64,000 nt of DNA, from contig JAPDKA010000003.1 in NCBI GenBank assembly GCA_029258825.1, positions 66,065 to 130,064 on the forward strand, read 5' to 3'. The notes below the pieces were generated by a model. The model made no database searches, was not told the DNA's origin, and was given only the letters and a program-made list of their open reading frames with translations. A program made the translations under genes and the position numbers. Source of the stretch: an archaeon. Lineage in GTDB: Archaea; Nanobdellota; Nanobdellia; Pacearchaeales; JAPDKA01. Positions 11,566-61,100 of this stretch are shown here, in pieces (position 1 is the stretch's first letter; each line of letters opens with the position of its first letter).

Positions 11566-11925
11566 TTACATCCTACCAAACCTTCGTCTTGCGCGTCTGC
11601 CCAATGGTTTGCCAATTGCTTTTTGCATTATCTTTATCCATTCAGGCTGACTTATGCGTATCGCTTTACCATTAACCAAAGCGTCAACAATTTTCTTTCT
11701 TGCTTCTATCAATAATCTATGCATTGTTGGTTGGGACACAGCCATCCTACTTGCAGCTTCTTCCTGGGTTAAACCAAGATAATCAACAAGTCTTAATGCT
11801 TCTAGTTCATCCATACCTAAAGCTACTTCACTAAGTTGTGCAAGAGCAACGCCAGCAGGCTTAAAATAAGCGACAGTTGGTTGAAACATAACAAACCTGC
11901 ATCGTCGCGGCCTAGCCATTTTCAA
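11566..11925 (-). CDS. DUF134 (UPF0251) family predicted DNA-binding protein
   Basis: N-terminus MARPRRCRFVMFQPTVAYFKPAGV and ...LGLTQEEAASRMAVSQPTMHRLLIEARKKIVDAL match the DUF134 / sigma70-region-4-like HTH family. A TATA-like atttttaaat lies about 27 bp upstream on the minus strand. Confidence 0.7.
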   Translation of the reverse strand: MKMARPRRCRFVMFQPTVAYFKPAGVALAQLSEVALGMDELEALRLVDYLGLTQEEAASRMAVSQPTMHRLLIEARKKIVDALVNGKAIRISQPEWIKIMQKAIGKPLGRRARRRFGRM

Positions 11926-12412: not shown

Positions 12413-12736
12413 TTACTTGATTTTCTTTAGTTGCTCTTCAATTTGTTTTAGCTCTTGTTTTAATGCTTCTATTTCTGCATTTATTTCAGCTTTTTCTTGC
12501 TCTAACAATTCTCTCTGCTCTTCTTTAGTTAATGCTGGTGCTGCTAATGCTCTTGCTTGTGCTTGCTGTAATTGTTGTAATGCTGCTAATCTCCAGTAAC
12601 CAAGGCCTCTGCCGAACCTGCCCATTCCAAAGCGTCCAAATCCAAACCATCCAAAGCCTCTGCCAAATCCCAGTCGTCTTAAACAAACCCAATTGCCATT
12701 GGCCCACCAAGGGCCAGTTCCATCTCCCCAAGGCAT
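12413..12736 (-). CDS. DUF5320 family protein
   Basis: N-terminal MPWGDGTGPWW plus a Gly/Arg/Phe-rich GFGRGFGWFGFGRFGMGRFGRG repeat and a C-terminal coiled coil make the characteristic DUF5320 architecture. Confidence 0.7.
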   Translation of the reverse strand: MPWGDGTGPWWANGNWVCLRRLGFGRGFGWFGFGRFGMGRFGRGLGYWRLAALQQLQQAQARALAAPALTKEEQRELLEQEKAEINAEIEALKQELKQIEEQLKKIK

Positions 12737-12815: not shown

Positions 12816-12895
12816 TTTTGAATATATATTCAAAACTCTATTATGAATATATATTCATAATTTAAAAACCTTTCGGTTATGAATATATATTCATA
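12816..12895. promoter_or_regulatory. three copies of the perfect palindrome TGAATATATATTCA bracketing a BRE/TATA element; putative operator array
   Basis: Palindromes at 12819-12832, 12844-12857 and 12880-12893. On the minus strand, CCGAAAGG + TTTTTAAATT (about 12855-12876) lies between copies 3 and 2, roughly 120-130 bp upstream of the DUF5320 ATG. Confidence 0.55.
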
Positions 12896-12938
12896 ACTCA
12901 ATCTTAGAAGCATTCAAGCTAGCAAAGAAAAAAATAAA

Positions 12939-13664
12939 CTAATGCAAGAACAGCTTAAAGCATAAAAGCAGAGCAATACCAAATAAAAACCACAAAAAGC
13001 TTAACCATGTTCTTATGCCTTCTTGCTTATGCAATTCAGGTATTAAATCACTGCTTGCAATATATAAGAAACCGCCAGCTGAGAATGCAAGAAGCACATA
13101 AATAAAAGTAGTAGTATGTACAAAAAACACAATTAAAGCACCAACAATACAAGTTAACTGAACAAGAAAATTGGCTAACAACGCTTTATGTTTTTTCCAA
13201 CCCCCATAAACAAGCACGGCAAAATCGCCCAGCTCTTGGGGTATCTCGTGAAGTATAATAAGAAGTGTGGTAATAAAACCGAAATGTAACGAAACTAAAA
13301 AGCTTGCACCAATGACAACACCATCAATAAAATTATGAACAGCGTCTCCTAACAGCGACAGATACGTAAAAGCGTGAATTTTACATTTAACATTATGGCA
13401 GTGCCTCCATCTTAAAATTTTTTCTAAGAAAAAGAAAAAGATAAAACCAAGCATCAACAAATAAAAAGCATTGCTATTAAGTTGCTCCATAGATTCTGCA
13501 AGCAAATGAAAAAAAGCACCAGCAAGTAACGCGCCTGATGCAAATGCGATCATTGAAAATATAAACTTGTCAAAGACATTGCGCCTTAACAACAATGAAA
13601 AAGCTCCAATTAAAGCGACCAAACTATTAAGGATTGTTGCAGCCAGTACATAAAGCAACAGCAT
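12939..13664 (-). CDS. ZIP family metal (Zn/Fe) transporter
   Basis: 8-TM protein with the HNFIDGVVIG and HEIPQELGDFAVL motifs characteristic of ZIP/ZupT transporters. Confidence 0.8.
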   Translation of the reverse strand: MLLLYVLAATILNSLVALIGAFSLLLRRNVFDKFIFSMIAFASGALLAGAFFHLLAESMEQLNSNAFYLLMLGFIFFFFLEKILRWRHCHNVKCKIHAFTYLSLLGDAVHNFIDGVVIGASFLVSLHFGFITTLLIILHEIPQELGDFAVLVYGGWKKHKALLANFLVQLTCIVGALIVFFVHTTTFIYVLLAFSAGGFLYIASSDLIPELHKQEGIRTWLSFLWFLFGIALLLCFKLFLH

Positions 13665-18685: not shown

Positions 18686-19957
18686 ATGTTACAACGAAAA
18701 GAAATAAGATATATTGTTAGTCTCTCTGCTATTGAAGATTTTATAAAAGAAATAAACAAAATTGCTAAAGAAGAAGTTTTTTCAACACCATATAATTGGA
18801 CGATATATTTCAACAATTCAGAACATGAAGTTCCATTTGAAGTCTCAATTAAAGGAAGAAAATATAGTAACCAACCATTTCATGGATCTCTTAATCTTGA
18901 CGAGAAATGGATCTTTGAAATTAAAGAAGACTACATAAACAAAAATTGTCGTTTTCGAAGAAAGAAAAGGAAAGTCCTAACTTTAGAAGAAATTTTAAAT
19001 ACACTTTCTGAAATGACTAATATAAAAACAAATCAAATCACTTCTCCATTGAGACCTTACCTACTTGATAGCTACAGAAGAAGACACTTTTTACTTGATG
19101 AAAATATCAGAATAACAATTGATACCGATTTAACTTATTATTTATTTGAGGACACATTTAACGGAAAGCAGATCGGAAATGAAAATTATGCTCGAATCGA
19201 AATCAAAATACGTTCAGAAAAAATTAATTCTACAAAATTTCATAAAATCGATTCGCTATTAAAAGATTTAGAAGCTGAAGAAACAATATCTAAAAAAGAT
19301 ATGGCTTACAATTTATTATCCAACTACTTAAGAAAGAAATCTGGAAGAAAAGTTGCTACTGGCGATGTAGAAATTGAAGCAAAATTATTATTGTCCAGGG
19401 ATGAGCAATATATATTTCATAAAATAAAGAGAGACTTTTATTATGGGTTAATAAAAGGGTTTACACTTTTAGATAATTTTCCTTATACTTTGGAAGGTGG
19501 AAAATTACATAAATACTTAGTGACTTCGAAAGACGAATTCTTTAGAGTGGGTATAAAAGGAAAATCAAAAACAATCATTCAAAAAGAAGGCTTCAAAGTA
19601 GTAGACGATCCTTACGGATTAAAATGTATTATAAAAAGAAAGGAAATCAGAAGACCATTCGATTCAAATATCGATTTATCTAAACTACAATTTAAGACGA
19701 TTTATCGAAAAAGAAAATACTTCTTAGTGGAAAATGAAAAAGATAAAAAAACTTACTGTATTCTAATAGATAGGTGCACCCATGAAGCCTCAGAATTGTT
19801 TCAAATGGAAATTGAAGGTTTATTAGATAGTCCGCTCAAAAACGAGGAAAGAGAGATTATTAGAGATATAGGATATTTGACATGTTGTCTAATCACAAAA
19901 TATCCTGTTCTTAAGCCAACTACTTTAACAAAATTGGAATGGCTAAGAAAAATATAA
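18686..19957 (+). CDS. hypothetical protein with CYTH/triphosphate-tunnel-metalloenzyme-like motifs (possibly tandem CYTH-like domains)
   Basis: Second half starts GDVEIEAKLLLSRDEQY (the ExExK signature of CYTH) and ends FQMEIEGLLD (the C-terminal acidic CYTH motif). The first half has related RIEIKIR/EIRYIV strings. The assignment is tentative. Confidence 0.4.
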   Translation: MLQRKEIRYIVSLSAIEDFIKEINKIAKEEVFSTPYNWTIYFNNSEHEVPFEVSIKGRKYSNQPFHGSLNLDEKWIFEIKEDYINKNCRFRRKKRKVLTLEEILNTLSEMTNIKTNQITSPLRPYLLDSYRRRHFLLDENIRITIDTDLTYYLFEDTFNGKQIGNENYARIEIKIRSEKINSTKFHKIDSLLKDLEAEETISKKDMAYNLLSNYLRKKSGRKVATGDVEIEAKLLLSRDEQYIFHKIKRDFYYGLIKGFTLLDNFPYTLEGGKLHKYLVTSKDEFFRVGIKGKSKTIIQKEGFKVVDDPYGLKCIIKRKEIRRPFDSNIDLSKLQFKTIYRKRKYFLVENEKDKKTYCILIDRCTHEASELFQMEIEGLLDSPLKNEEREIIRDIGYLTCCLITKYPVLKPTTLTKLEWLRKI

Positions 19958-24459: not shown

Positions 24460-25521
24460 TTATTTTTCTGTTTTTTGCACGTCAATATTAAGCCAAGGAT
24501 AAAACATAAACCTCCAGTCTTGCCGCATTAAACAAATAGTATCTGCAAAACACTTTATTGCTTTCACATATGCTTTTTGCTTGTTGTAAGCATACAGTGC
24601 TGAATCAACAGAGTGATTAAAGTTATAAAGCGAAAGATAGCAAGCAACCATTCCAATAGCGTCATGCAAGCTAAAAATATCAAGACCATCGCTATTAACA
24701 TCGCAAAGATCAAGTAAACCTGAATTATAAAGCATTAAAATCGTGCTCGGCAGAAACTGAGCAGGGGTTATTGCACCAGCAAAACTGCAGTTGCAAAAAG
24801 GATTGTTAATTATGCCTTGTTCAAACAAGTTAAACAATGCATCCAGTTGTTTTATTGCAAATTGCTGCTTTCCAGCAAGATATAGCGTGACTAATGTATT
24901 AAACAATTTTTGCTTTCCGCAGTAATTGCCAAAGCATGATTCTAAAGCGAGAATTGCTGTTATAATCTCGATAGGTTTATGTTGCATATCTAATGAAAAT
25001 AAATTCACAGCATTAATTAAATCTTTCTCATAAGTGTTGATAAAATTTAATGCTTTGTTAAACATTTTTGGCGTATAAAAACCGAGCTCTGGTTTTAAGT
25101 AATAATCTTCGCTAATTTTATCGATTTTGTTGTAATGCTTCAATGTTTCTCTTAATTTTGCCACATCATAAATTTGAAAGTCATCGCTTGCAAACAATTT
25201 TTCTGCTAACCCTCCATAACGCGATGTCAAATAAAGCTTTAACTTAGCAAGATCATCAAGCTGTTTTCTTTGATGTTTACAGCCTTGAGCAACTTGTTCT
25301 AGTTTACGCTGGGTAATTTGAGCAGTTTGTTCAGTTACTTGTTGCTCAATCTGACATTGAGCTCGACTTGCTCTGCATTGGTTTTCATAATGGCAAGGAA
25401 AAAGAAAAGGCAAGATAAGTGCAAAATTTAAAGCATTAAACCGTGTCATGCTGTAATTAAAGCAAAGAAATATAAAAAGGTTATTGAAAAATAAAGGAGT
25501 TAACAAATTATAGACATTCAC
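24460..25521 (-). CDS. family-3 (MltB/SLT_2-like) lytic transglycosylase-like protein with an N-terminal hydrophobic segment
   Basis: ILALESCFGNYCG matches the catalytic-Glu ES motif. AGAITPAQFLPSTILMLYNSG matches the GA.GpaQFmPsT motif of MltB-type lytic transglycosylases. The N-terminal hydrophobic segment could be a signal peptide or anchor. Confidence 0.6.
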   Translation of the reverse strand: MNVYNLLTPLFFNNLFIFLCFNYSMTRFNALNFALILPFLFPCHYENQCRASRAQCQIEQQVTEQTAQITQRKLEQVAQGCKHQRKQLDDLAKLKLYLTSRYGGLAEKLFASDDFQIYDVAKLRETLKHYNKIDKISEDYYLKPELGFYTPKMFNKALNFINTYEKDLINAVNLFSLDMQHKPIEIITAILALESCFGNYCGKQKLFNTLVTLYLAGKQQFAIKQLDALFNLFEQGIINNPFCNCSFAGAITPAQFLPSTILMLYNSGLLDLCDVNSDGLDIFSLHDAIGMVACYLSLYNFNHSVDSALYAYNKQKAYVKAIKCFADTICLMRQDWRFMFYPWLNIDVQKTEK

Positions 25522-25803
25522 AAAGGTTTTTTATTCTATTTTTTTGTAAAAGTAAACCAGGCTTGCTGAAACACTTTTACAGATAAAAGAAAAATTTAAA
25601 AACATTATCGTCGAGCCGACCCTAGAAGATTTCAGAAGCTTTAAACCGAAAGATTTAAGTTTTTAAAAATATATGTTACATACATACTATACTCATTAAA
25701 AAGAAGAATTAAATATGCTATTCAAAGATAAACATATGCTTCATTCAATTGTATTTCATCGAGCTAATATTAAATCTAATATTAAATTAAATTTATCAGA
25801 TTA

Positions 25804-26151
25804 ATGCATAAGATGAAAATAGCTGTAAGTTCGATAGGAAAAAATCTTGAAAGCCAAATTAGTAATGTATTCGGGAGATGCCCGTATTTTATTATTGCTG
25901 AAATTGAAAACAAAAGAATTGTAAAAACTAAAACAATTAAAAACACAAGTGCTAATCAAATGGGCGGAGCAGGAATCTCTGCTGCTCAAATAATTGCAGA
26001 AGAAGGTGTAAAAGTTGTAATAACAGGAAATATTGGACCAAAGGCTTCTTCTGTTTTGAAACAATTTGATATTGAAGTTTATAGAGGAAGCGGGTTAGTA
26101 AAAGAGGTATTACAAAAATTTATTGAAGGAAAACTTGAAAGAATTCAATAA
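25804..26151 (+). CDS. NifX/NifB-like (dinitrogenase FeMo-cofactor biosynthesis domain, PF02579-like) protein
   Basis: MKIAVSS...FGRCPYFIIAEIEN...GAGISAAQIIAEEGVKVVITGNIGPKASSVL is the typical NifX_NifB fold pattern. The true start may be the third Met of the ORF (MKIAVSS), 9 nt into it at about 25813. Confidence 0.7.
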   Translation: MHKMKIAVSSIGKNLESQISNVFGRCPYFIIAEIENKRIVKTKTIKNTSANQMGGAGISAAQIIAEEGVKVVITGNIGPKASSVLKQFDIEVYRGSGLVKEVLQKFIEGKLERIQ

Positions 26152-26177
26152 AAGATAATAAAAATTTAAAATAAAAA

Positions 26178-26585
26178 ATGGAAGTAAAGATAGATAAAAA
26201 TAAGTGTATTGGTTGTGGAATCTGTGTTAACATATGTCCAGAAGGTATAGAAATAAGAAACGGAAAGGCTTCTATAAAAGATGAAAATGTGGATTGTTTA
26301 ATACAAGCTGCGAATTCATGCCCTAAACATGCTATTATTTTAGAAGCGAATAAACAACAATCAGAAAGTTTAGAAATCCCGCAGGGTTTTACAAGAATGG
26401 GAGTGGGCCGCAGAATTCATAGTAGAGGGCAAGGAAGGAGAAGAAGAATGGGTGGTTTTGCAGCTGGCCCTGAAGGTTATTGTGTATGCACAAAATGTGG
26501 ATATAAAATTTTACATCAGCGAGGAATTCCCTGCCACCAGCAGAAATGCCCTAAGTGCGGCTCTCCAATGATAAGAGCTAATTAA
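26178..26585 (+). CDS. 4Fe-4S ferredoxin domain fused to a DUF5320-like C-terminal domain
   Basis: N-terminal CIGCGICVNICP ... C..NSCP (a 2x[4Fe-4S] ferredoxin). C-terminal GRRIHSRGQGRRRRMGG ... CVCTKCGYKILHQRGIPCHQQKCPKCGSPM matches the Cys-rich DUF5320 variant. Confidence 0.65.
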   Translation: MEVKIDKNKCIGCGICVNICPEGIEIRNGKASIKDENVDCLIQAANSCPKHAIILEANKQQSESLEIPQGFTRMGVGRRIHSRGQGRRRRMGGFAAGPEGYCVCTKCGYKILHQRGIPCHQQKCPKCGSPMIRAN

Positions 26586-26589
26586 AATA

Positions 26590-26952
26590 TTGAAAATAAT
26601 AAAAGTGAAAATAGCAATTCCCACAGAAAATAAAAAAGGATTAAACGATAAAGTAACAGAACATTTTGGTAGATGCAATACTTTTACTTTTCTTAACGAG
26701 AAAGGAGAACTCATTGAAATAATTGATAATAAAAGTCAGCTAGGCTTATTGCCTCCACAACTTTTGAAAAAGCATGGAGCAAACGTTTTGTTATGCAAAG
26801 CTCTCGGTTTAAAAGCTTTTGATTTATGCAAACAACTTGGCATAGAGGTCTATATTTCAAAAGCAAAAACAGTTAAAGAAATTTTTGAAGAATGGAAAAA
26901 TAAAAAAATCAAAAAAGCTAATTTTGAAAATATTTGCAAACATGGAAAATGA
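26590..26952 (+). CDS. NifX/NifB-like (dinitrogenase FeMo-cofactor biosynthesis domain) protein, second copy
   Basis: KIAIPTENKKGLNDKVTEHFGRCNTFTF...LLKKHGANVLLCKALGLKAF. It overlaps the next gene by ATGA. Confidence 0.7.
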   Translation: MKIIKVKIAIPTENKKGLNDKVTEHFGRCNTFTFLNEKGELIEIIDNKSQLGLLPPQLLKKHGANVLLCKALGLKAFDLCKQLGIEVYISKAKTVKEIFEEWKNKKIKKANFENICKHGK

Positions 26953-27806
26953 AAATTACTTTTATGATTGTTTTTATCGTTATTTTTGTAATTATTTTAA
27001 TATTATTAGCATTAATTTATAAATTTATATTCAATATAAATACAATGAAGGAGAATAAAGAAAATATAACAAAAGATTTAGAAAAAAATTTTCTTTCTAA
27101 TATAACAATTTCTAACATAACAATTATTGATGTTTATGATAATGTTGAATTTAATCCAAAATTCAAAACAGGTTTCGGTTTTGCGTGTGTTGTAAAATTA
27201 AAGAATAATACAATTCTTTTTGATACCGGAAGCGATTCAAAAATACTATTAACAAATTTAGAAATAGCAGGAATCAAACCAGAGGAAATAGGGATTATTG
27301 TTTTATCACACATTCATGGAGACCATACTGGCGGTCTTTTAGGGTTTTTGAGGAGAAATTCCAATGTTAAGGTTTACGTTCCTGTTTCTTTTCCATCTTC
27401 ATTTAAAAAGGAAATAAAAGCAACAGGAGCAAAAGTAGTAAATGTTACTAATTTTATGAAAATAACAGAAGGAATTTATTCGACAGGAGAGCTTGGAACA
27501 TGGATTAAAGAACAATCTTTAGTAATTAATTCTGATAAAGGATTAATTATTATAACTGGTTGCGCCCATCCTGGTATTGTTAACATAGTAAAGAAAGTAA
27601 AGGAATTAACAAATAAAAATATTTATATTGTTATGGGAGGATTTCATCATCCTCCAATTGAAATAGTAAAAGAATTTAAAAAACTTGATGTGAAAAAAGT
27701 AGCACCGAGCCATTGCACAGGAGATGAAGCAATAAATGCTTTCAAAAAAGAATATCAAGAAGATTTTATAAAATCTGGGGTTGGAAAGATTATTGTAATA
27801 AAATAA
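26949..27806 (+). CDS. MBL-fold metallo-hydrolase (COG1237-like) with an N-terminal TM helix
   Basis: LSHIHGDHTGGL (HxHxDH) and a downstream GGFHH motif. The start is chosen at the ATG that overlaps the upstream TGA as ATGA. Confidence 0.7.
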   Translation: MKITFMIVFIVIFVIILILLALIYKFIFNINTMKENKENITKDLEKNFLSNITISNITIIDVYDNVEFNPKFKTGFGFACVVKLKNNTILFDTGSDSKILLTNLEIAGIKPEEIGIIVLSHIHGDHTGGLLGFLRRNSNVKVYVPVSFPSSFKKEIKATGAKVVNVTNFMKITEGIYSTGELGTWIKEQSLVINSDKGLIIITGCAHPGIVNIVKKVKELTNKNIYIVMGGFHHPPIEIVKEFKKLDVKKVAPSHCTGDEAINAFKKEYQEDFIKSGVGKIIVIK

Positions 27807-27835
27807 AACAAAAAATAAAAATCGACAGCAATTAA

Positions 27836-28672
27836 ATGCTAAAGGAAGTGCTTTTTAAAACACTTTTTGAAACACTGAAAATAGTAGGAATAGTAACAAT
27901 TTTAATGATCTTTATTGAGTATTTACAAATAAAGTTCAAGAAAAAAATTGAAAAGTACATCACAAAAAACAAGAAAAATCAAATAATAGGTTCTTCTTTG
28001 CTTGGCGCAATTCCTGGTTGCATAGATGCGTTTTTTATTGTTTCTTTATATTCTCACGGCTTGGTAGGCTTTGGTGCTTTAACAGCAGTTATGCTCTCAA
28101 CAGCAGGTGATGAAGCTTTCGTCATGCTTGCCATGGTTCCAAAGACCGCTTTTTTAATTTTTGCATCATGTGTCATTCTAGGAATTCTTGGTGGTTTTCT
28201 TGCTGATGCTATAGTAAAGAAAACAAAATTAAAAAGGTCGAAACCTTGTATCATAAAAATTCATAAAAAAGAAAAACTTGGACATTTTTTTAAAGAACAT
28301 GTATACAACCATATTATCAAAAAGCATGCATTAAAACTTTTCTTATGGATTTTTTTTACTTTGTTAATAGTTGAATTGTTAATGGAGAAGTTTGATCTCG
28401 CTAGTTTTCTGCCAAAAAATGTTTTGTTAATGATTTTAATTGCTGCATTGGTTGGGATAATTCCTGAATCAGGACCTCATCTGATATTTCTTACTTTGTT
28501 TGCTAAAGGCCTAATTCCTTTTTCAGTTTTGTTGACTTCTTCATTGGTGCAAGACGGTCATGGCCTACTTCCTTTACTTTCCTATTCTGTTAAGGATGCA
28601 ATTAAAGTTAAAATTTTTAATGTTGTTTTTGGACTCATTGTTGGAATAGCTTTATTTTTAGTTGGAATTTAA
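27836..28672 (+). CDS. putative permease (two-repeat polytopic membrane protein), function unknown
   Basis: About 8 TM segments with GAIPGC and IPESGPH motifs in the two halves. It co-operonic with the ATPases. The family assignment is uncertain. Confidence 0.45.
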   Translation: MLKEVLFKTLFETLKIVGIVTILMIFIEYLQIKFKKKIEKYITKNKKNQIIGSSLLGAIPGCIDAFFIVSLYSHGLVGFGALTAVMLSTAGDEAFVMLAMVPKTAFLIFASCVILGILGGFLADAIVKKTKLKRSKPCIIKIHKKEKLGHFFKEHVYNHIIKKHALKLFLWIFFTLLIVELLMEKFDLASFLPKNVLLMILIAALVGIIPESGPHLIFLTLFAKGLIPFSVLLTSSLVQDGHGLLPLLSYSVKDAIKVKIFNVVFGLIVGIALFLVGI

Positions 28673-28673
28673 A

Positions 28674-29504
28674 ATGAGAATAGCAATTACTGGCGGAAAA
28701 GGAGGAACAGGAAAATCAACAATAGCAACAGCTTTGGCTTACAAATTAGCAAAAACAAAAAAAGTCTTACTTCTTGATTTAGATGTTGATTGCCCAAACG
28801 ATGATTTGATTCTTGGAATTAAAACAAAAAAAGTAAAAGATGTTGAAAGCATGATTCCAAAATTTGATTATAAAAAATGTAAAAAATGTGGTTTGTGTTC
28901 TAAAATCTGTAAAGAACATGCAATCGTTTTTGTTAAAGGAAATTTTCCCTTTGTAATTCCTGAGCAATGCATTGGTTGCAAAGCTTGTAAGATTGTATGC
29001 CCTTTCCATGCTATAACAGAAGAAAAACAAAAAATAGGTGAAATTTTTATCGGCAAAAAAGGAAACCTCACTTTAATAGGCGGAAAAATGAAACCTGTGA
29101 TTGAAGAATCAAGTTTGGTTGTAAATGCGGTAAAAAAATTTTCACAGGAATATGAGAAAAAGTATGATTATGTAATTGTTGATACTGCGGCAGGAACACA
29201 TTGTCCTGTTATTTCTGCCTTACTTAATTGTGATATCGCTTTTGCTGTAACAGAGCCAACACCTCTTGGCCAGCATGATTTAGAATTAATTTTAAAATTA
29301 ACAAAAAAATTGAAAATTAAATCTTATGTTATTTTAAACAGATCTGACATTGCTAATAAAAAAATGATTGAGAACATTGCAAGAAAATACAAAACAAAAA
29401 TTATTGCAGAAATCCCTTACAGTAAGGAAATTGAAAAAAATTATTCAGTTGGAAAACCAATTGAGCATGAAGCTATAGATCAGATTATAAACATGGTAAA
29501 ATGA
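28674..29504 (+). CDS. MinD/ParA-superfamily P-loop ATPase with an inserted 4Fe-4S ferredoxin domain (COG1149-like)
   Basis: Walker A ITGGKGGTGKST, two CxxCxxCxxxCP ferredoxin motifs (CKKCGLCSKICKEHA; CIGCKACKIVCP), then the ParA core (VIVDTAAGTHCP). Confidence 0.8.
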   Translation: MRIAITGGKGGTGKSTIATALAYKLAKTKKVLLLDLDVDCPNDDLILGIKTKKVKDVESMIPKFDYKKCKKCGLCSKICKEHAIVFVKGNFPFVIPEQCIGCKACKIVCPFHAITEEKQKIGEIFIGKKGNLTLIGGKMKPVIEESSLVVNAVKKFSQEYEKKYDYVIVDTAAGTHCPVISALLNCDIAFAVTEPTPLGQHDLELILKLTKKLKIKSYVILNRSDIANKKMIENIARKYKTKIIAEIPYSKEIEKNYSVGKPIEHEAIDQIINMVK

Positions 29505-30412
29505 AAACAATAACAATTTTATCTGGTAAAGGAGGTGTTGGAAAAAGTTCCATTACTGCTTCTTTAGCTGTGTTGTTAGCAAGAAAATATAAAATTGTTA
29601 CAGCCGATTGTGATGTTGATACACCAAATCTTGGTTTGTTGTTTGGCATTAAAAATTTTAAAAATTTGAAGAAAGTATCAACAAACTATAAAGCATTTGT
29701 AAATAAAAAGGTTAAAAAATGCCCTAATGTAAAAAAATTATCTGATGTATGCACTTTTTTTGCCATTTCTTGGAATGAAAAAATGAATATACCAATAATA
29801 AACAGATTTTTGTGCGAAGGTTGTGGTGCGTGTAAATTATTATGTCCGGAAGGAATAGAATTGAAGAGAGTGAAAAATGCTGTTATTGGCCAAACAAAAA
29901 CAAAATACGGTTTTTATATTGTTTTTGGCCAGCTAAAAGTTGGGGAATCAGGAAGTGGGAACATTGTTGAAATTATTAAAGAAAGAACAAGAAAAATCGC
30001 TGAAAATGTTAAAGCAGATTTCATCATTATTGATTCGTCTGCAGGAATTGGTTGTCCTGTTATTGCCTCAATCAGAGATTCTGATTTTGTTATCGCAGTT
30101 ACAGAACCAACTCCTTCTGCTTTACGTGACTTAAAGAGAGCACTAAAGGTTGTTGAACATTTCAAAATACCTTACGGGGTTATTATTAATAAATATGATC
30201 TTAACAAAAAATTCACAAAAAAAATAGAAAATTTTGCAAATAACCATGGAATTCCAATATTTGGAAAATTACCTTATGACAAATCATTTGTTGAATCAAT
30301 AGTGAATCTTATGCCAGTTGTTGTTTATGATAAAAGATTTGAAAGATTATTTTTAAGTATTTTAAATAATGTCAAAAATAATCTCGATAAAATTTACAAT
30401 AAAAATTTATGA
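29501..30412 (+). CDS. MinD/ParA-superfamily P-loop ATPase with an inserted 4Fe-4S ferredoxin domain (COG1149-like), paralog 2
   Basis: Walker A LSGKGGVGKSS, CEGCGACKLLCP, and IIIDSSAGIGCPV. The start overlaps the upstream stop as ATGA. Confidence 0.8.
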   Translation: MKTITILSGKGGVGKSSITASLAVLLARKYKIVTADCDVDTPNLGLLFGIKNFKNLKKVSTNYKAFVNKKVKKCPNVKKLSDVCTFFAISWNEKMNIPIINRFLCEGCGACKLLCPEGIELKRVKNAVIGQTKTKYGFYIVFGQLKVGESGSGNIVEIIKERTRKIAENVKADFIIIDSSAGIGCPVIASIRDSDFVIAVTEPTPSALRDLKRALKVVEHFKIPYGVIINKYDLNKKFTKKIENFANNHGIPIFGKLPYDKSFVESIVNLMPVVVYDKRFERLFLSILNNVKNNLDKIYNKNL

Positions 30413-56800: not shown

Positions 56801-58195
56801 ATGATTAGGTTTGTTAATAGAAATAGAGAGTTGAACATTTTAAATAGAGATTGGAATAATTTGAATAATGGATTTATAGTTATTTATGGTAGAAGAAGGA
56901 TCGGAAAGACAAAGCTTATAGAGGAATTTGTAAAAGACAAAAAAGGAATAAGTTATACTGCCGAAGATACAAGCAAGAAAATTCAGATAAGAGAATTCAA
57001 AGATGCTATAGCAAGTTTTTTGGATGATGATTTTTTGAAAAACCAAGAGATAGTAAGTTGGTCTTCTTTGTTTGAGTATTTACAAAAAGTGCTAGATAGA
57101 AATAAGCGTTTTTATATATGGATAGACGAATTTTCTTATTTGTTAAAAAATGATAAATCATTACCAAGCATATTACAAAAATTCATTGATAAATTCTTGA
57201 GGAACTCTAAAATTTTCTTTATTGTAAGTGGCTCATTATTTGGTTTAATGAAAGAAAAGGTTTTATCAAATTCTTCCCCCCTTTACGGAAGGAGAACAAG
57301 AGACATATTACTTAGAGAACTAAATTTCGAACATGCAATCAAATTCGTTAATTTTAATTTTGAAGACAAATTAAAAACATTCCTTACAATTGGAGGAATT
57401 CCAGAATATCTTTTAGTAGCTTCAAAATTCAAAACTTATGAAGAATTTATAAAACAAGAATTTTTTACTCATGAAGGATATTTCTACAGAGAGCCTTATT
57501 TCCTACTATCCCAAGAATTTAAAGAGATAAGGATCTATTTTTCTATACTTAATGCGATTGCATATGGTAATACAAAACCAAGCGAGATAGCAAATTTTGT
57601 TGGGATAAAAACAAGGGAAATATACCCTTATCTTGAATTACTTAATGCTTACGGATTCGTTACAAGAGAGAAACATCTATTCAAAGAAAAGCTAGGAATC
57701 TATTTAATCAAAGATTGTTTTTTTGATTTCTGGTTTAATTTTGTACATAAGAATAGAGAGCTTATAGAAAGAGGAGCTTATGAATTAAATAAAAAAAAGA
57801 TAAACACATATCTTGGAAAAAGATTCGAGATTTTCATTAAAGATAACTTCCATTACTTTTTCAAGGATTATACAAAAATCGGCAGATGGTGGCACAAAGA
57901 CAGAGAAATTGATATTGTAGCTATCAACGAAAAAAACAAGCAAATTCTTGCTTGTGAATGCAAATGGCAAAGCAGGGTTAATGCTGAAAAGATAGCTAAA
58001 GAACTAAACGAAAAGCTTGGCTATGTTGATTGGCAAAAAGATAAAAGAAAAGAAAGTTTTGCTATTTTTGCAAAAAGCTTTAGCAAACGCATTAAGGAAT
58101 GGCAAGGCAAGCCTGTTTATTGCTTTGATTTGAAGGATTTAGAGAAAGCAATGAAACACAAAACAAAACACAAAAAATTTTTAAAGAGTAAATGA
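56801..58195 (+). CDS. archaeal AAA-type ATPase fused to a DUF234 domain
   Basis: Walker A IYGRRRIGKTKL, Walker B WIDEFSYL, then a C-terminal DUF234-like region. This is a common archaeal architecture. Confidence 0.6.
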   Translation: MIRFVNRNRELNILNRDWNNLNNGFIVIYGRRRIGKTKLIEEFVKDKKGISYTAEDTSKKIQIREFKDAIASFLDDDFLKNQEIVSWSSLFEYLQKVLDRNKRFYIWIDEFSYLLKNDKSLPSILQKFIDKFLRNSKIFFIVSGSLFGLMKEKVLSNSSPLYGRRTRDILLRELNFEHAIKFVNFNFEDKLKTFLTIGGIPEYLLVASKFKTYEEFIKQEFFTHEGYFYREPYFLLSQEFKEIRIYFSILNAIAYGNTKPSEIANFVGIKTREIYPYLELLNAYGFVTREKHLFKEKLGIYLIKDCFFDFWFNFVHKNRELIERGAYELNKKKINTYLGKRFEIFIKDNFHYFFKDYTKIGRWWHKDREIDIVAINEKNKQILACECKWQSRVNAEKIAKELNEKLGYVDWQKDKRKESFAIFAKSFSKRIKEWQGKPVYCFDLKDLEKAMKHKTKHKKFLKSK

Positions 58196-61100
58196 GTTGG
58201 GTGAGTATGAAGAGGGGTGTAAAATATTTAATTATGTTATTTTTTTTCATGTTATTATTATTTATGAATATCGATCACAACGTTAAAGCGGCAACACAAA
58301 AAAAAGAGCTATTAATATTATTTACGTTGAAATTAAATAGTGATGGGAGTACACACCCACATACTACAAACTTGAAAGGATGGGTAATAGACTTTTCCGA
58401 TCAACAACAACCAACAAAGAGATTAAAGAAAGAAGGGGAAAGCAATAATATTTTTGTTGAGAATGTACCAATAGAGTTTGAAACAGGAGTATGGGATCAC
58501 AATTTTGGATATGGTGTGGGAGCTACTTTGGGTGATTACGATTGTGATAAAAAACCTGATTTGATAATAGCATATGGTACAGGTTGGAACAATAACAAAC
58601 CTCAATGGATAAAATTATTAATATTTGAAAATATAAAACTAGTAGAACGTGGCGGTGTGGTAACATACTATGAACTTCAATATGATAGAGAAAAAGAAAT
58701 TGATTTAACAAGAGATTATGATGGAATAAAATATTTACTTGGTGATCATGTTGGAGGAATAGGAATCACATTTGTAGGATGTAGAGGCGACATTAGTAAA
58801 TTTAGAATAGTAGTATTCGATCCTGAAAAAGACTGTAAAGCTAGAGCAGTCGATGTAGAGTTATGTAACTGTAAATACTATGGAAGTTCAAGTATAAGTT
58901 GGTGGAGTGGTTGGCCAAGCGGAAGTATAGCAAATGAAAGAGGAAGTGGAGTCGGAGTAATTAATAAAACTTATTTTATGATATATACTACTTACTTTAA
59001 GGAAACTGAAAATCTTCTTGATATATTCGAATGTGATGAAAGTTCTGAGAAGTGTACAAAAAAAGAGGGAAAAGATCTTAATTGGAATGTAGCTTCTGGC
59101 ATAGGGGCCACATCAAAATCAAAAGATACGGTAATTATAGCAATTACTTCCTATAAACCAAATGATGATGTTGCAAAAATAAAATTGATGAAGCTAGACA
59201 CTACAAAGTTACACGAATTTGGTGTTTTCAATTCACCAAGATTAAGTGAAGGATTATCGACATTCGGCATTGGTTTAGCACGGGCCGTTATAAACCCTTT
59301 TAGTGGGAAACTTATAGAAGACTGCTCAAATGGCTTAGATGATGATTTCGATGGAAAGATTGATGATAATGATAAAGATTGTGATGAAAGTCAGCATTGT
59401 GGTGATGGAATAGACAATGATGATGATGGTAAGAAAGATTGCGCCGATCCAGACTGCTGGGGAAAAACAGGTCCAAATGGAGTGAGATGTTGTGGTTCAG
59501 ATGATGATTGTGGTAATAAGTGTAAAAATTGTAAGTATTATAAGGGTGAATGTAATAATAACATATGTACATGGGAGGAACATATAGGTACTGACGAGGA
59601 TAATGATGAACACGATGTAGAGTGTGGATATCAATGTGAATGTAATGACAGTGATGATACTATTCATAAAGACGCAACTGAAATCTGCACTGACGAAATA
59701 GACAATGATTGTGATGACCTAATCGACTGCGATGATCCTGATTGTACAAACAACCCTGCGTGTGCTCCTCAAACAGAAACAGACTGTTCAAACGAAATTG
59801 ATGATGATGGAGATGGTTTTATTGATTGTGAGGATCCTGACTGTGCTGGACGTGAAGGTCCAAATGGGAAAATTTGTTGTCAAGAAAGCTGGGACTGTCC
59901 TGGATGGCCAACACAATTTTGTAGTAAACCTACCCACGCATGCACATATTGTAGTAAATCTGGTGAATGTAGCATAGAAAAATGCGATTATAAAATATTC
60001 GGATGTTGTATTTCTCAAGGAAAAGTATGCAAAGATTCTACATGCCAAACAGCATGTCAAGTAGTAAAAAATCGCAAAATTAATTTAAAAGAGTTGGAAG
60101 ATATTCCACAGTGCTTAGTACTTCGAGGAAACGTAACTCTAGATTGTCAAAACCAGATATTAGACGGAAGTCATACTAATTTTCCTGCTGCGATAGTTAT
60201 TTCTAACGAAAATGGAGAGGACGGTCCGATAATAATTAAGAACTGTAAACTACAAAATTGGGTATACGGAATTTTAGCATATTATTCTGCAAACATTATA
60301 TTAGAGAATGTAGAAATAAATAACTCTAAACGACAGTGCGATACAGGAGGTATAGGAGCAGCATTCTACGAAAGTAAAGATATAACAATAATCAATAGCA
60401 AGATTGTTAATAACAGTTGGGATGGTATTGGAATCTACGCTAGACGATATAATGTAAGTAACATAACAATACGTGGTAGCACCATTTACTACAACGGCTG
60501 GCAATCAACAAACGGCGGAGCTGGTATTTCGTTCTATACCCCAAGCAACAACAAGTTAAGTGATATAACGGTAAAAAACAGCCATATTTACAACAATTCA
60601 TTTTCAGGTATATACTTGAAAAATGTTGAGAATGTCAAAATAATAGGCAACAACATACATGATAATAACATAGGTATTAACGTTAATGGAAATAGTAGTG
60701 GTATAACGATAATAGACAACATAATACACAGAAACGTAAATAATACAAACAATTTTCCAGAGAATATTAAAAAAGATGAATATGGTTTAAATGAAGCTGG
60801 ACAAGGAATAAGGCTTAAAACAATTGTTGGAGAAAAAATACGAAATGTAACAATAAAAAATAACGAGATTTACGATAATGATGCAGAAGGTATTGATAGT
60901 TACTGGAGGGATAGTGGAAACTTATTTGATATTCAAATACTACAAAACACATTAAAAGACAATAGACATGGCATTTCTCTGAAGAATGTTGACAGATTCG
61001 TAATAAGAAATAAATTAACTCAAACTAATGTTTTTAAAAATGGAGAGGAACCATTATGGGAGTGGGAGTGCGTCCCAATTGAAAACCATGACTCTGCGAT

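Follow-up and report, generated by a model that had tools for sequence, protein, structure and literature searches.

The window analysed here, a stretch of 64,000 nucleotides from an archaeal contig (JAPDKA010000003.1), carries seven co-directional open reading frames (ORFs) on its + strand at 25804-30412, and the question they raise is to which system they belong and what this system does. Judged by its domains, the cluster belongs to the orange protein (ORP) system of Desulfovibrio, known since 2011 as an "anaerobe-specific" complex, of which it represents a DPANN-archaeal variant. The ORP system as such is known and its function unsolved; what is new is an archaeal arrangement that includes a metallo-beta-lactamase (MBL)-fold protein, an ArsP_2 permease and a ferredoxin fused to a Cys-rich knuckle. 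With regard to function, we consider it on balance probable that the cluster specifies an ATP-driven machine for the handling of metal-sulfur species that is coupled to metal transport across the membrane. The seven genes, g1 to g7, are listed below.

25804-26151, + strand: g1, single-domain NifX/MTH1175-like protein of 115 residues (PF02579, E 1.3e-24)
26178-26369, + strand: g2, N-terminal half, single [4Fe-4S] ferredoxin domain (Fer4_15, Fer4_6 and Fer4, E 3e-9 to 2e-7, residues 3-54)
26370-26585, + strand: g2, C-terminal half, Gly/Arg-rich linker and Cys6His knuckle (family alignments)
26605-26952, + strand: g3, second NifX/MTH1175-like protein (PF02579, E 1.4e-14)
26949-27806, + strand: g4, Tflp/COG1237-type MBL-fold protein of 285 residues, ATGA start overlapping the g3 stop (PF00753, E 2e-13)
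27836-28672, + strand: g5, ArsP_2 permease of 278 residues, two repeats of four transmembrane segments and a His/Cys-rich central loop (PF11449, E 4e-43)
28674-29504, + strand: g6 (ATPa), MinD/Mrp-class ATPase with an inserted 2x[4Fe-4S] ferredoxin domain (CbiA/ParA and Fer4)
29501-30412, + strand: g7 (ATPb), paralogous ATPase, ATGA start overlapping the g6 stop (CbiA/ParA P-loop and Fer4)

The seven genes and the orange protein system

Two of the features by which the ORP system can be recognized are found in the cluster: g6 and g7 are adjacent paralogous ATPases with [4Fe-4S] inserts, one motif of g7 being degenerate, and both g1 and g3 are single-domain PF02579 proteins. The NCBIfam model of MrpORP (NF041136) is matched piecewise, its C-terminal part by g1 and g3 and its N-terminal part by g6 and g7; for MrpORP itself (Orp9, an Mrp/NBP35 domain joined to a NifX-like domain), only these partial matches were obtained, with 41-70 bits against a cut-off of 450. 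A cluster of Peptoclostridium acidaminophilum serves as the sequence bridge to ORP, and Orp3 and Orp4 of D. vulgaris were compared by their published description. On the P. acidaminophilum replicon NZ_CP007453 (RefSeq), the annotated order is DUF134 - NifB/NifX - ATP-binding - ATP-binding - "iron-sulfur cluster carrier protein MrpORP". g6 is 30% identical to both ATPases of this cluster (E 3e-35 and 1e-31), and g7 is 35% identical to the second one (E 2e-48).

In D. vulgaris, Orp3 and Orp4 are paralogues with two [4Fe-4S] motifs each, and they co-purify with Orp8 (PMC6345978); g6 is, on this comparison, an Orp3/Orp4-like subunit. Further members of the system are Orp5, the PF02579 orange protein Orp8, and Orp9/MrpORP (PMC6345978, PMC8359166). 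The ORP complex receives Fe-S from MrpORP in vitro (PMC6345978), orp expression is confined to very low redox potentials (PMC8359166), and the system has been described as "putatively involved in cell division", with an archaeal origin suggested (PMC6345978, PMC8359166). The earlier note on this DNA stated that the biochemical role of the gene set had never been established. This is correct insofar as the physiological function is open, but the system has a name, and there are publications on its subunits, on how MrpORP loads it with Fe-S and on the redox dependence of its expression (PMC6345978, PMC8359166).

The gene order and coordinates, as read from the ORF list of the window, are reproduced by an independent gene caller, which predicts the same seven genes in the same order on the ENA contig (67,950 bp) and on a Logan contig (7,330 bp). 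Because the gene string is recovered from two independent assemblies, an assembly chimera is unlikely. Direct reading of the sequence confirms the tight junctions reported before, i.e. ATGA stop/start overlaps between g3 and g4 (26949-26952) and between g6 and g7 (29501-29504), and a single base (28673) between the TAA stop of g5 and the ATG of g6; the remaining intergenic gaps measure 26, 19 and 29 nt. Overlaps and short gaps support the operon-like packing that had been claimed. A T5 run lies directly 3' of the last stop codon, and the neighbouring downstream gene is convergent.

The two ATPases are 37% identical to each other, and both retain an intact deviant Walker A motif (GKGGxGKS). In g6, both CxxCxxCxxxC motifs are present, and ten Cys residues are 97-100% conserved in 80 orthologues. 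The first ferredoxin motif of g7 is degenerate, with V77 and L80 at positions where 74-96% of 74 orthologues keep Cys; the second motif is intact. Because two Cys of the first motif are lost, g7 probably carries one ferredoxin cluster rather than two, which suggests the loss of one cluster in this lineage; the former description of two ATPases with 2x[4Fe-4S] inserts holds for g6, but not for g7. Extra Cys residues are located near switch I/II, namely C40 (DVDCP) and C177 (GTHCP) in ATPa, both 100% conserved, and C37 (97%) and C185 (100%) in ATPb, across the same 80 and 74 orthologues, respectively. C177 follows the Walker B Asp by 7 residues, presumably in the same way as C132 of NifH follows D125. 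The AlphaFold2 (AF2) model of g6 has a pLDDT of 92.7, and its closest folds in the PDB are archaeal MinD, then ATPase-type HypB, ApbC and NifH; the inserted 2x[4Fe-4S] ferredoxin domain was found in no solved relative by sequence and fold searches of the PDB. The models of nifH, BchX and CfbC score 21-32 bits against g6 and g7 (cut-offs 331-402). The minD models TIGR01968 and TIGR01969 reach 60-74 bits (cut-offs 202-213), and the ferredoxin insert is foreign to MinD.

For g1 and g3, the NifX/NifB-like assignment is borne out by PF02579 (E 1e-24 and 1e-14). In the PDB, g1 matches MTH1175 (1EO1, E 3e-26) and the ORP of D. gigas (2WFB, E 1.9e-12); it is the counterpart of the orange protein Orp8 and a presumed carrier, which would hold a metal-sulfur cluster non-covalently. 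An alternative start of g1 at ATG 25813 is possible. g3 comprises 115 residues if read from GTG 26605, the start chosen by the gene caller, or 120 residues if read from TTG 26590, and the GTG is more likely to be the true start. Many relatives possess two NifX genes or a tandem NifX-NifX fusion. A cationic Gly-rich tail of the IssA type is absent from g1 and g3, both chains ending right after the NifX domain.

g2 had been described as a ferredoxin fused to DUF5320. The ferredoxin part stands, given the Fer4 matches, and small stand-alone ferredoxins are repeatedly found in related clusters. The DUF5320 part does not: the C-terminal 70 residues have no Pfam match at E<=1, hence none to PF17253, and a profile-profile comparison (hhalign) of the knuckle family with 15 DUF5320 sequences yields a probability of 7%. 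This region is, according to the family alignments, a distinct Cys6His domain without a Pfam model; its motif CxCxxC-x5-H-x5-C-x4-CxxC (window 26433-26585) contains six Cys and one His that are invariant. A profile search retrieves 2140 cluster representatives at E<=1e-3, and the knuckle is found fused to DUF134, to cation diffusion facilitator (CDF) transporters and to PDZ/NifX/rhodanese proteins. In large proteins of 600-1430 residues (P0258-P0263, P0268, P0308), it is repeated two to five times in combination with PDZ, NifX, rhodanese or HtrA-type protease domains.

The MBL fold of g4 is likewise confirmed (PF00753, E 2e-13), and its matches in the PDB are 7DCK (E 1e-45), TM1679 and Tflp (2P4Z, E 4e-19). 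Its motifs TGCAHPG and SHCTG align to TGCSHAG and GHCTG of Tflp, and HIHGDH is retained. g4 possesses HxHxDH, a Cys that replaces Asp at motif 4 and a Cys right after the motif-5 His, i.e. the features of the Tflp/COG1237 clade; the two Tflp-specific Cys motifs are also kept in 12 cluster-linked MBL relatives. The term "hydrolase" used for g4 is probably wrong, because the Tflp-type Cys motifs are kept and Tflp holds an Fe-S centre when reduced (PMC7785958). We regard g4 as probably a protein with an Fe or Fe-S centre. An N-terminal hydrophobic anchor (window 26949-27040) is present in g4 and in 4 of the 12 related MBL proteins; the other relatives are soluble.

That g5 is a polytopic permease, as had been proposed, is evident from PF11449 (E 4e-43), and it scores 158 bits with NCBIfam NF037962 ("arsenic efflux protein", cut-off 100). 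The family alignment of ArsP_2 reveals invariant residues in PGC62, TAGD92, PxSGPH215 and QDGHG243 and at H150, H155 and H164 of the loop. Because invariant Cys, His and Asp together with a His/Cys-rich loop are a typical ligand set, a transition-metal cation is the substrate suggested for ArsP_2; g5 is a probable transition-metal transporter. The AF2 model of g5 has a pLDDT of 82; the PDB sequence search found no solved relative, and the best fold match to the model has E 0.33. The gene context of six ArsP_2 homologues was compared. Four of them, belonging to different archaeal lineages, immediately follow the ATPase pair, each time with MBL in the same cluster, and a fifth adjoins a NikR-type regulator. 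Neighbours of ArsP_2 include a ZIP transporter (L085), an EncFtn-like protein (L086), a DtxR-type iron-dependent repressor and DUF364 ("heavy-metal chelation") in L088 (Methanocellales), and FeoB, ZIP, NikR and CbiM in L089. Some ArsP_2 homologues are labelled "selenocysteine protein"; their sequences contain no U, and we take the label to be an annotation artefact.

The conserved unit in related loci

The survey of related loci is based on one genome per species; the best 80 loci include about 70 from DPANN archaea and 9 from bacteria. Their ORFs were searched with the proteins of the window, and unless another number is given, counts refer to the 55 loci with at least 4 kb upstream; in a second set, unassigned ORFs were clustered, and 42 loci are well flanked. 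The ATPase family yields 3650 matches at E<=1e-10, the top 120 of which are 58-85% identical and belong to DPANN archaea, Patescibacteria and Omnitrophica. A relative is encoded in at least 496 species-representative genomes, which substantiates the claim that such genes recur in anaerobic archaea and bacteria.

ATPb directly follows ATPa in 72 of 74 loci. A NifX-like gene adjoins the pair in 50 of 55 loci and DUF134 in 44, in 26 of those as a fusion with the Cys knuckle; a knuckle is found near ATPa in 38 loci. Canonical DUF5320 occurs in 28 further loci of the 80, and in 26 of the 42 well-flanked ones in all. MBL genes, on the other hand, lie near ATPa in only 11 of 55 loci (9 of the 42 well-flanked) and ArsP_2 genes in only 3 (2 of the 42). 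Because MBL and ArsP_2 are rare and the ATPase pair, NifX and DUF134 common, the conserved unit is smaller than seven genes: it is DUF134 (with or without the knuckle) - NifX - ATPa - ATPb, often with DUF5320, and the seven-gene string is lineage-specific. The neighbourhood check that the earlier note called for hence splits its claim: the core of ATPase pair, NifX and DUF134 is co-conserved, while MBL and ArsP_2 are accessory, though recurrent, and the seven-gene arrangement is not what is conserved. The gene order varies as well, MBL-ArsP_2 preceding the ATPases here and ArsP_2-MBL following them in L036, L088 and L089.

Of the 42 well-flanked loci, 27 have a metal-type permease of some kind within the cluster. 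Among the 80 loci, ZIP genes occur within 11 ATPase clusters (also in L085 and L089) and ArsP_1-like half-permeases in 10-12; a CDF transporter (PF01545 with ZT_dimer) is C-terminally fused to NifX in 14 loci and to the Cys knuckle in 9. Thioredoxin-fused DsbD/CcdA-like membrane proteins (18 of 80), DUF123 (14 of 80) and family-4 uracil-DNA glycosylases (10 of 80) are further neighbours. L089 combines, in one string, FeoB, DUF134, an Mrp-like ATPase, ferredoxin, DUF5320, NifX, the ATPase pair, ArsP_2, MBL, radical SAM, DUF1847, ZIP, NikR and CbiM; a NifX::DUF5320 fusion at L089:3150-3728, with a Gly/Arg/Met-rich linker and a coiled coil, has an IssA-like architecture. A cluster from Chloroflexota reads DUF5320 - HTH | NifX - ATPase - ATPase - DUF59 - peroxiredoxin. 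Homologues of Mrp, CDF, DtxR, FeoB and NikR are absent from the 64-kb window.

Two observations accompany the survey. Examples of the CDF fusions are L020:7130-8398, L034:8208-9635, L024:4831-5883 and L019:285-1334; site A in transmembrane segments 2 and 5 reads D/HxxxD and D/ExxxD in the NifX fusions, and HxxxD and HxxxD (in some NxxxD) in the knuckle fusions. Moreover, the orthologues of the ATPases and of ArsP_2 are 58-86% identical across DPANN phyla and bacteria of the candidate phyla radiation (CPR) (L003-L082; P0002-P0120, P0137-P0255), an unusually high level that could reflect inter-domain transfer, strong constraint or both.

In the window, the remaining components of the conserved unit are displaced from the seven genes. 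They are listed together with a transporter gene and two repeat elements.

11566-11925, - strand: DUF134 protein of 119 residues, sigma-70 region-4-like helix-turn-helix and Arg-rich tail (PF02001, E 4.5e-28; Sigma70_r4_2, E 1e-5)
12413-12736, - strand: DUF5320 protein of 107 residues, Gly/Arg/aromatic-rich N-terminus and coiled coil (PF17253, E 7.5e-10)
12816-12896, no strand: three 20-bp palindromes TT(A/T)TGAATATATATTCA(T/A)AA between the ZIP and DUF5320 genes (repeat search)
12939-13664, - strand: ZIP-family metal transporter, directly upstream of the DUF5320 gene on the same strand (PF02535, E 4.7e-36)
25764-25787, + strand: tandem 12-nt repeat CTAATATTAAAT x2, a perfect duplication 17 nt 5' of the g1 ATG (repeat search)

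The DUF134 gene is 14 kb from the seven-gene cluster. The stand-alone DUF134 and DUF5320 genes had been assigned correctly (E 4.5e-28 and 7.5e-10), and their attribution to the same association is supported by relatives in which both adjoin the ATPase pair. We presume that DUF134 is the regulator of the system; the ZIP gene possibly belongs to the same functional neighbourhood. The 14-nt core of the palindromes has three exact copies and none elsewhere in the window, a count that 0 of 100 shuffles reach; the palindromes look like an operator for a regulator that is possibly metal-responsive. The repeat upstream of g1 is a possible promoter-proximal or operator element of this gene, its link to the cluster being uncertain, and a single CTAATATTAAAT copy is no more frequent than expected by chance in AT-rich window DNA. 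It is unrelated to the TGAATATATATTCA palindromes, and a comparison of the region upstream of g1 with those upstream of DUF134, DUF5320 and ZIP detected no common motif that could represent a shared operator. No Rfam match for a riboswitch or small RNA was obtained at E<=1 in the 282-nt leader or within the cluster; scans for sigma-70 promoters and intrinsic terminators gave counts at chance level, with bacterial models that are not applicable to an archaeal host.

The window has a G+C content of about 30%, and archaeal genes flank the cluster in it, i.e. those for aCPSF1/FttA, a proteasome beta subunit, TFE and EF-2. A synteny comparison with the closest loci, aimed at taxonomic placement, gave matches for EF-2 (51%) and a rhomboid protein (53%, Pacearchaeota) alone. 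The gene adjoining the cluster on its 5' side, which is divergently oriented (24460-25521, - strand), is SLT_2 lytic-transglycosylase-like (PF13406, E 3.5e-18) and embedded in the otherwise archaeal contig. Elsewhere, the window encodes a VTC-domain (polyphosphate-related) protein at 18686-19957 and a 1727-residue ORF without annotation at 58192-63375.

Proposed function and competing explanations

We envisage the metal-sulfur machine as follows. The two ATPases would form an ATP-sandwich heterodimer, much as Orp3, Orp4 and Orp8 co-purify in D. vulgaris, and C40 and C177 of ATPa together with C37 and C185 of ATPb could hold a labile Fe-S cluster or metal ion at the interface, as in NifH, Mrp/NBP35, CooC and HypB. 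The ferredoxin inserts might supply or tune electrons, and ATP binding and hydrolysis might be the driving force by which a metal-sulfur species is assembled, reduced or exchanged with the NifX-like carriers, whose binding of anionic metal-sulfide clusters would be non-covalent. Passage of the metal through the membrane would be the task of the permease, in whose place relatives have CDF, ZIP or ArsP_1-like proteins; Fe(II) is the most likely metal, other thiophilic cations being less likely candidates. The Cys knuckle and the Gly/Arg-rich segments may be cytosolic modules for docking or sensing of the cargo, and DUF134 would regulate transcription of the system. Overall, the system could serve to buffer, store, deliver or export iron-sulfur or metal-sulfide species when the surroundings are sulfidic and of low potential.

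The trafficking of metalloclusters or Fe-S, which the earlier note had proposed from the domains, remains the best inference, and its bases are the CDF fusions, the metal-related gene neighbours, the Tflp-type MBL protein, the IssA-like NifX::DUF5320 fusion, the joining of the knuckle to rhodanese-NifX and PDZ-NifX proteins, and DUF59 behind the ATPase pair in the Chloroflexota cluster. Published data on relatives point in the same direction. A CDF protein of A. ferrooxidans with a C-terminal MTH1175 (NifX-type) signature is encoded behind a predicted Fur box (PMC1874648); IssA, the thioferrate iron-sulfur storage protein of P. furiosus, combines a NifX domain with a cationic Gly-rich tail that binds thioferrate (PMC5524996); and proteins of the NifX/IssA clade are more abundant in M. 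voltae on FeS2 (PMC8516115). In sum, the comparative data appear to link ORP to metal transport and iron-sulfur handling more than to cell division.

Four other explanations compete with this one. A dedicated maturation factor for one metalloenzyme cofactor, comparable to CooC for carbon monoxide dehydrogenase, HypB for hydrogenase or NifH/NifX for nitrogenase-type enzymes, seems rather unlikely to us, even if g6 and g7 belong to the same ATPase class as CooC, ATPase-type HypB and NifH, and even if cofactor precursors are known cargo of the NifX family (PMC5524996). The neighbourhoods in L089 and L090 include NikR and CbiM, and radical SAM and DUF1847 genes follow the cluster in L088 and L089; however, no conserved candidate for a client enzyme stands beside the cluster in the 80 loci, the system is retained in DPANN and CPR genomes of minimal metabolism, and the nifH, BchX and CfbC scores are far too low. 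Unlikely, and slightly more so, is the assumption that two unrelated units happen to be adjacent, i.e. an ORP core (g1-g3, g6-g7) and an inserted, independent membrane unit (g4, g5) without coupling to it. The absence of MBL and ArsP_2 from most ATPase clusters, as well as their varying order and position (before the ATPases here, after them in L036, L088 and L089), would be expected under this assumption. Yet both junctions are tied, one by the ATGA overlap of g3 and g4 and the other by the 1-nt gap between g5 and g6; the four ArsP_2 homologues directly behind ATPb all have MBL in the same cluster; and the Tflp type, to which g4 belongs, is one with an Fe/Fe-S centre.

The published proposal that the system acts in cell division would make the MinD-like pair a device that positions the septum or another structure, its metal centres being only redox sensors. 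Archaeal and bacterial MinD are indeed the closest solved folds and the minD models do give partial matches, and morphology defects of an orpR mutant and a polar localization of MrpORP have been reported (PMC6345978, PMC3897727). We nevertheless consider this improbable: the scores lie far below the cut-offs and cover mostly the P-loop, neither MinC nor MinE was seen, and what stays constant around the pair are NifX-like carriers, Cys-rich modules and metal transporters instead of genes for division. Fusions such as CDF::NifX, CDF::knuckle and rhodanese::NifX would make no sense for positioning. Least probable of all, in our opinion, is the detoxification of arsenic, an organoarsenical or some other metalloid, with ArsP_2 as exporter, ArsA-like ATPases and an MBL protein that modifies the compound. 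The PF02374 ArsA_ATPase matches of the two ATPases (E 1e-9 and 3e-7) are confined to the first 37-63 residues, i.e. the P-loop. NCBIfam calls g5 an "arsenic efflux protein" with a score above its cut-off, and the ArsP family does contain a proven organoarsenical exporter (PMC7176098); but ArsP_2 is present in just 2 of 42 ATPase clusters, the family also bears the name "putative manganese transporter", its invariant His and Asp and its His-rich loop suit a cation better, and its neighbours are iron, nickel and zinc genes. ArsR, ArsB/Acr3, ArsC and ArsM are missing among the Pfam-annotated neighbours in the window and in the related loci. As regards formal membership, an arsenic operon and a MinD system were rejected, owing to missing ars genes and to model scores below the cut-offs, respectively; a nitrogenase-like system is disfavoured by its model scores, while each ATPase subunit does have two extra conserved Cys, the number expected for a bridging [4Fe-4S] cluster in NifH-type reductases.

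Several points also weigh against the metal-sulfur machine that we prefer. MrpORP is the sole ORP component with demonstrated Fe-S transfer, and the 64-kb window contains no Mrp or MrpORP homologue besides the partial matches within the cluster. So far, the sole cofactor observed in an orange protein has been a cluster of Mo, Cu and S rather than an Fe-S one (PMC6345978), and for the Desulfovibrio system, septum positioning is the published proposal. Database names for ArsP_2 conflict ("putative manganese transporter" versus "arsenic efflux protein"), and no experimental basis for either name was found in the sources looked at. MBL and ArsP_2 are accessory in a survey centred on the ATPases and may serve a separate purpose. 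The meeting of the extra Cys of g6 and g7 at a dimer interface, where they would hold a labile Fe-S cluster or metal, is deduced from relatives; the packing fits one operon, and co-transcription is inferred from gene spacing alone.

A broader and more speculative version of the metal-sulfur proposal may nonetheless be worth stating, though we consider it rather unlikely. Together with a permease that can be exchanged (CDF, ZIP, ArsP_1 or ArsP_2), the ATPase pair and NifX could make up a self-contained pathway in which metal-sulfide species formed beforehand (FeS(aq)- or thioferrate-like) pass between membrane and client proteins, with the knuckle and the Gly/Arg-rich modules as cargo adaptors. 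Such a route would be an ancient, anaerobe-specific supply or disposal of Fe-S; it would complement the canonical SUF/ISC-type machineries or replace them in certain DPANN and CPR organisms.

These results matter more for ORP in general, through what the comparison suggests about it, than for this one locus. Many DPANN archaea and CPR bacteria, whose genomes have little dispensable content, have kept the system. The hypothesis that ORP is a cytosolic engine of metal or metal-sulfide trafficking, docking onto membrane metal transporters, is testable and competes with the published cell-division idea; furthermore, it connects ORP to iron-sulfur storage of the IssA type and to the unsolved route of FeS(aq) assimilation in anaerobes. 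For database curation, two targets emerge: a widespread Cys6His domain without a Pfam model, and the ArsP_2 family with its contradictory public names.

Comparison with known systems

With the SIMIBI NTPases (Mrp/NBP35/ApbC, ATPase-type HypB, CooC and NifH), g6 and g7 share the fold and the deviant Walker A motif, and their conserved Cys near switch I/II could likewise sit at a dimer interface. They lack the CxxC motif of Mrp, however, and remain far below the cut-offs of the family models.

g4 has the same HxHxDH, motif-4 Cys and Cys after the motif-5 His as Tflp, the ferredoxin-like MBL protein of T. tengcongensis (PDB 2P4Z; COG1237). It differs by its N-terminal membrane anchor and by having 7DCK as its closest structure. 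In the case of the permease, characterized ArsP proteins possess a vicinal Cys pair, whereas g5 has a single invariant Cys together with His and Asp ligands and the His-rich loop. g5 matches PF11449 and not PF03773, the family of the characterized ArsP, and the context of ArsP_2 consists of iron, zinc and nickel genes rather than ars genes. What g5 has in common with the organoarsenical efflux permease ArsP is the TC family (2.A.119; PMC7176098) and the 4+4 transmembrane repeats.

The CDF protein of A. ferrooxidans has the CDF::NifX architecture of 14 related loci and is predicted to be under Fur (iron) control; the window contains no CDF, the membrane partner here being ArsP_2. IssA shares its NifX domain (IPR003731) with g1 and g3, and the Gly/Arg-rich segments of g2 and DUF5320 resemble the IssA tail, in trans. 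On the other hand, g1 and g3 are tail-less, IssA has not been described with an ATPase pair, and nanoparticles are a feature of IssA.

The closest relative is the ORP system itself. The archaeal genes form one operon-like string instead of the two divergent operons of Desulfovibrio, MrpORP is not found in the window, and the sigma-54/OrpR control is a bacterial feature while the host is archaeal. Here, DUF134 and DUF5320 lie 14 kb away from the other genes, ATPb has one degenerate ferredoxin motif, and three components are extra, namely a Tflp-type MBL protein, an ArsP_2 permease and a fusion of ferredoxin with the knuckle. Common to both are the ATPase pair with ferredoxin motifs and a single-domain PF02579 protein, to which annotated bacterial ORP clusters also add DUF134, and the restriction of the system to anaerobes.

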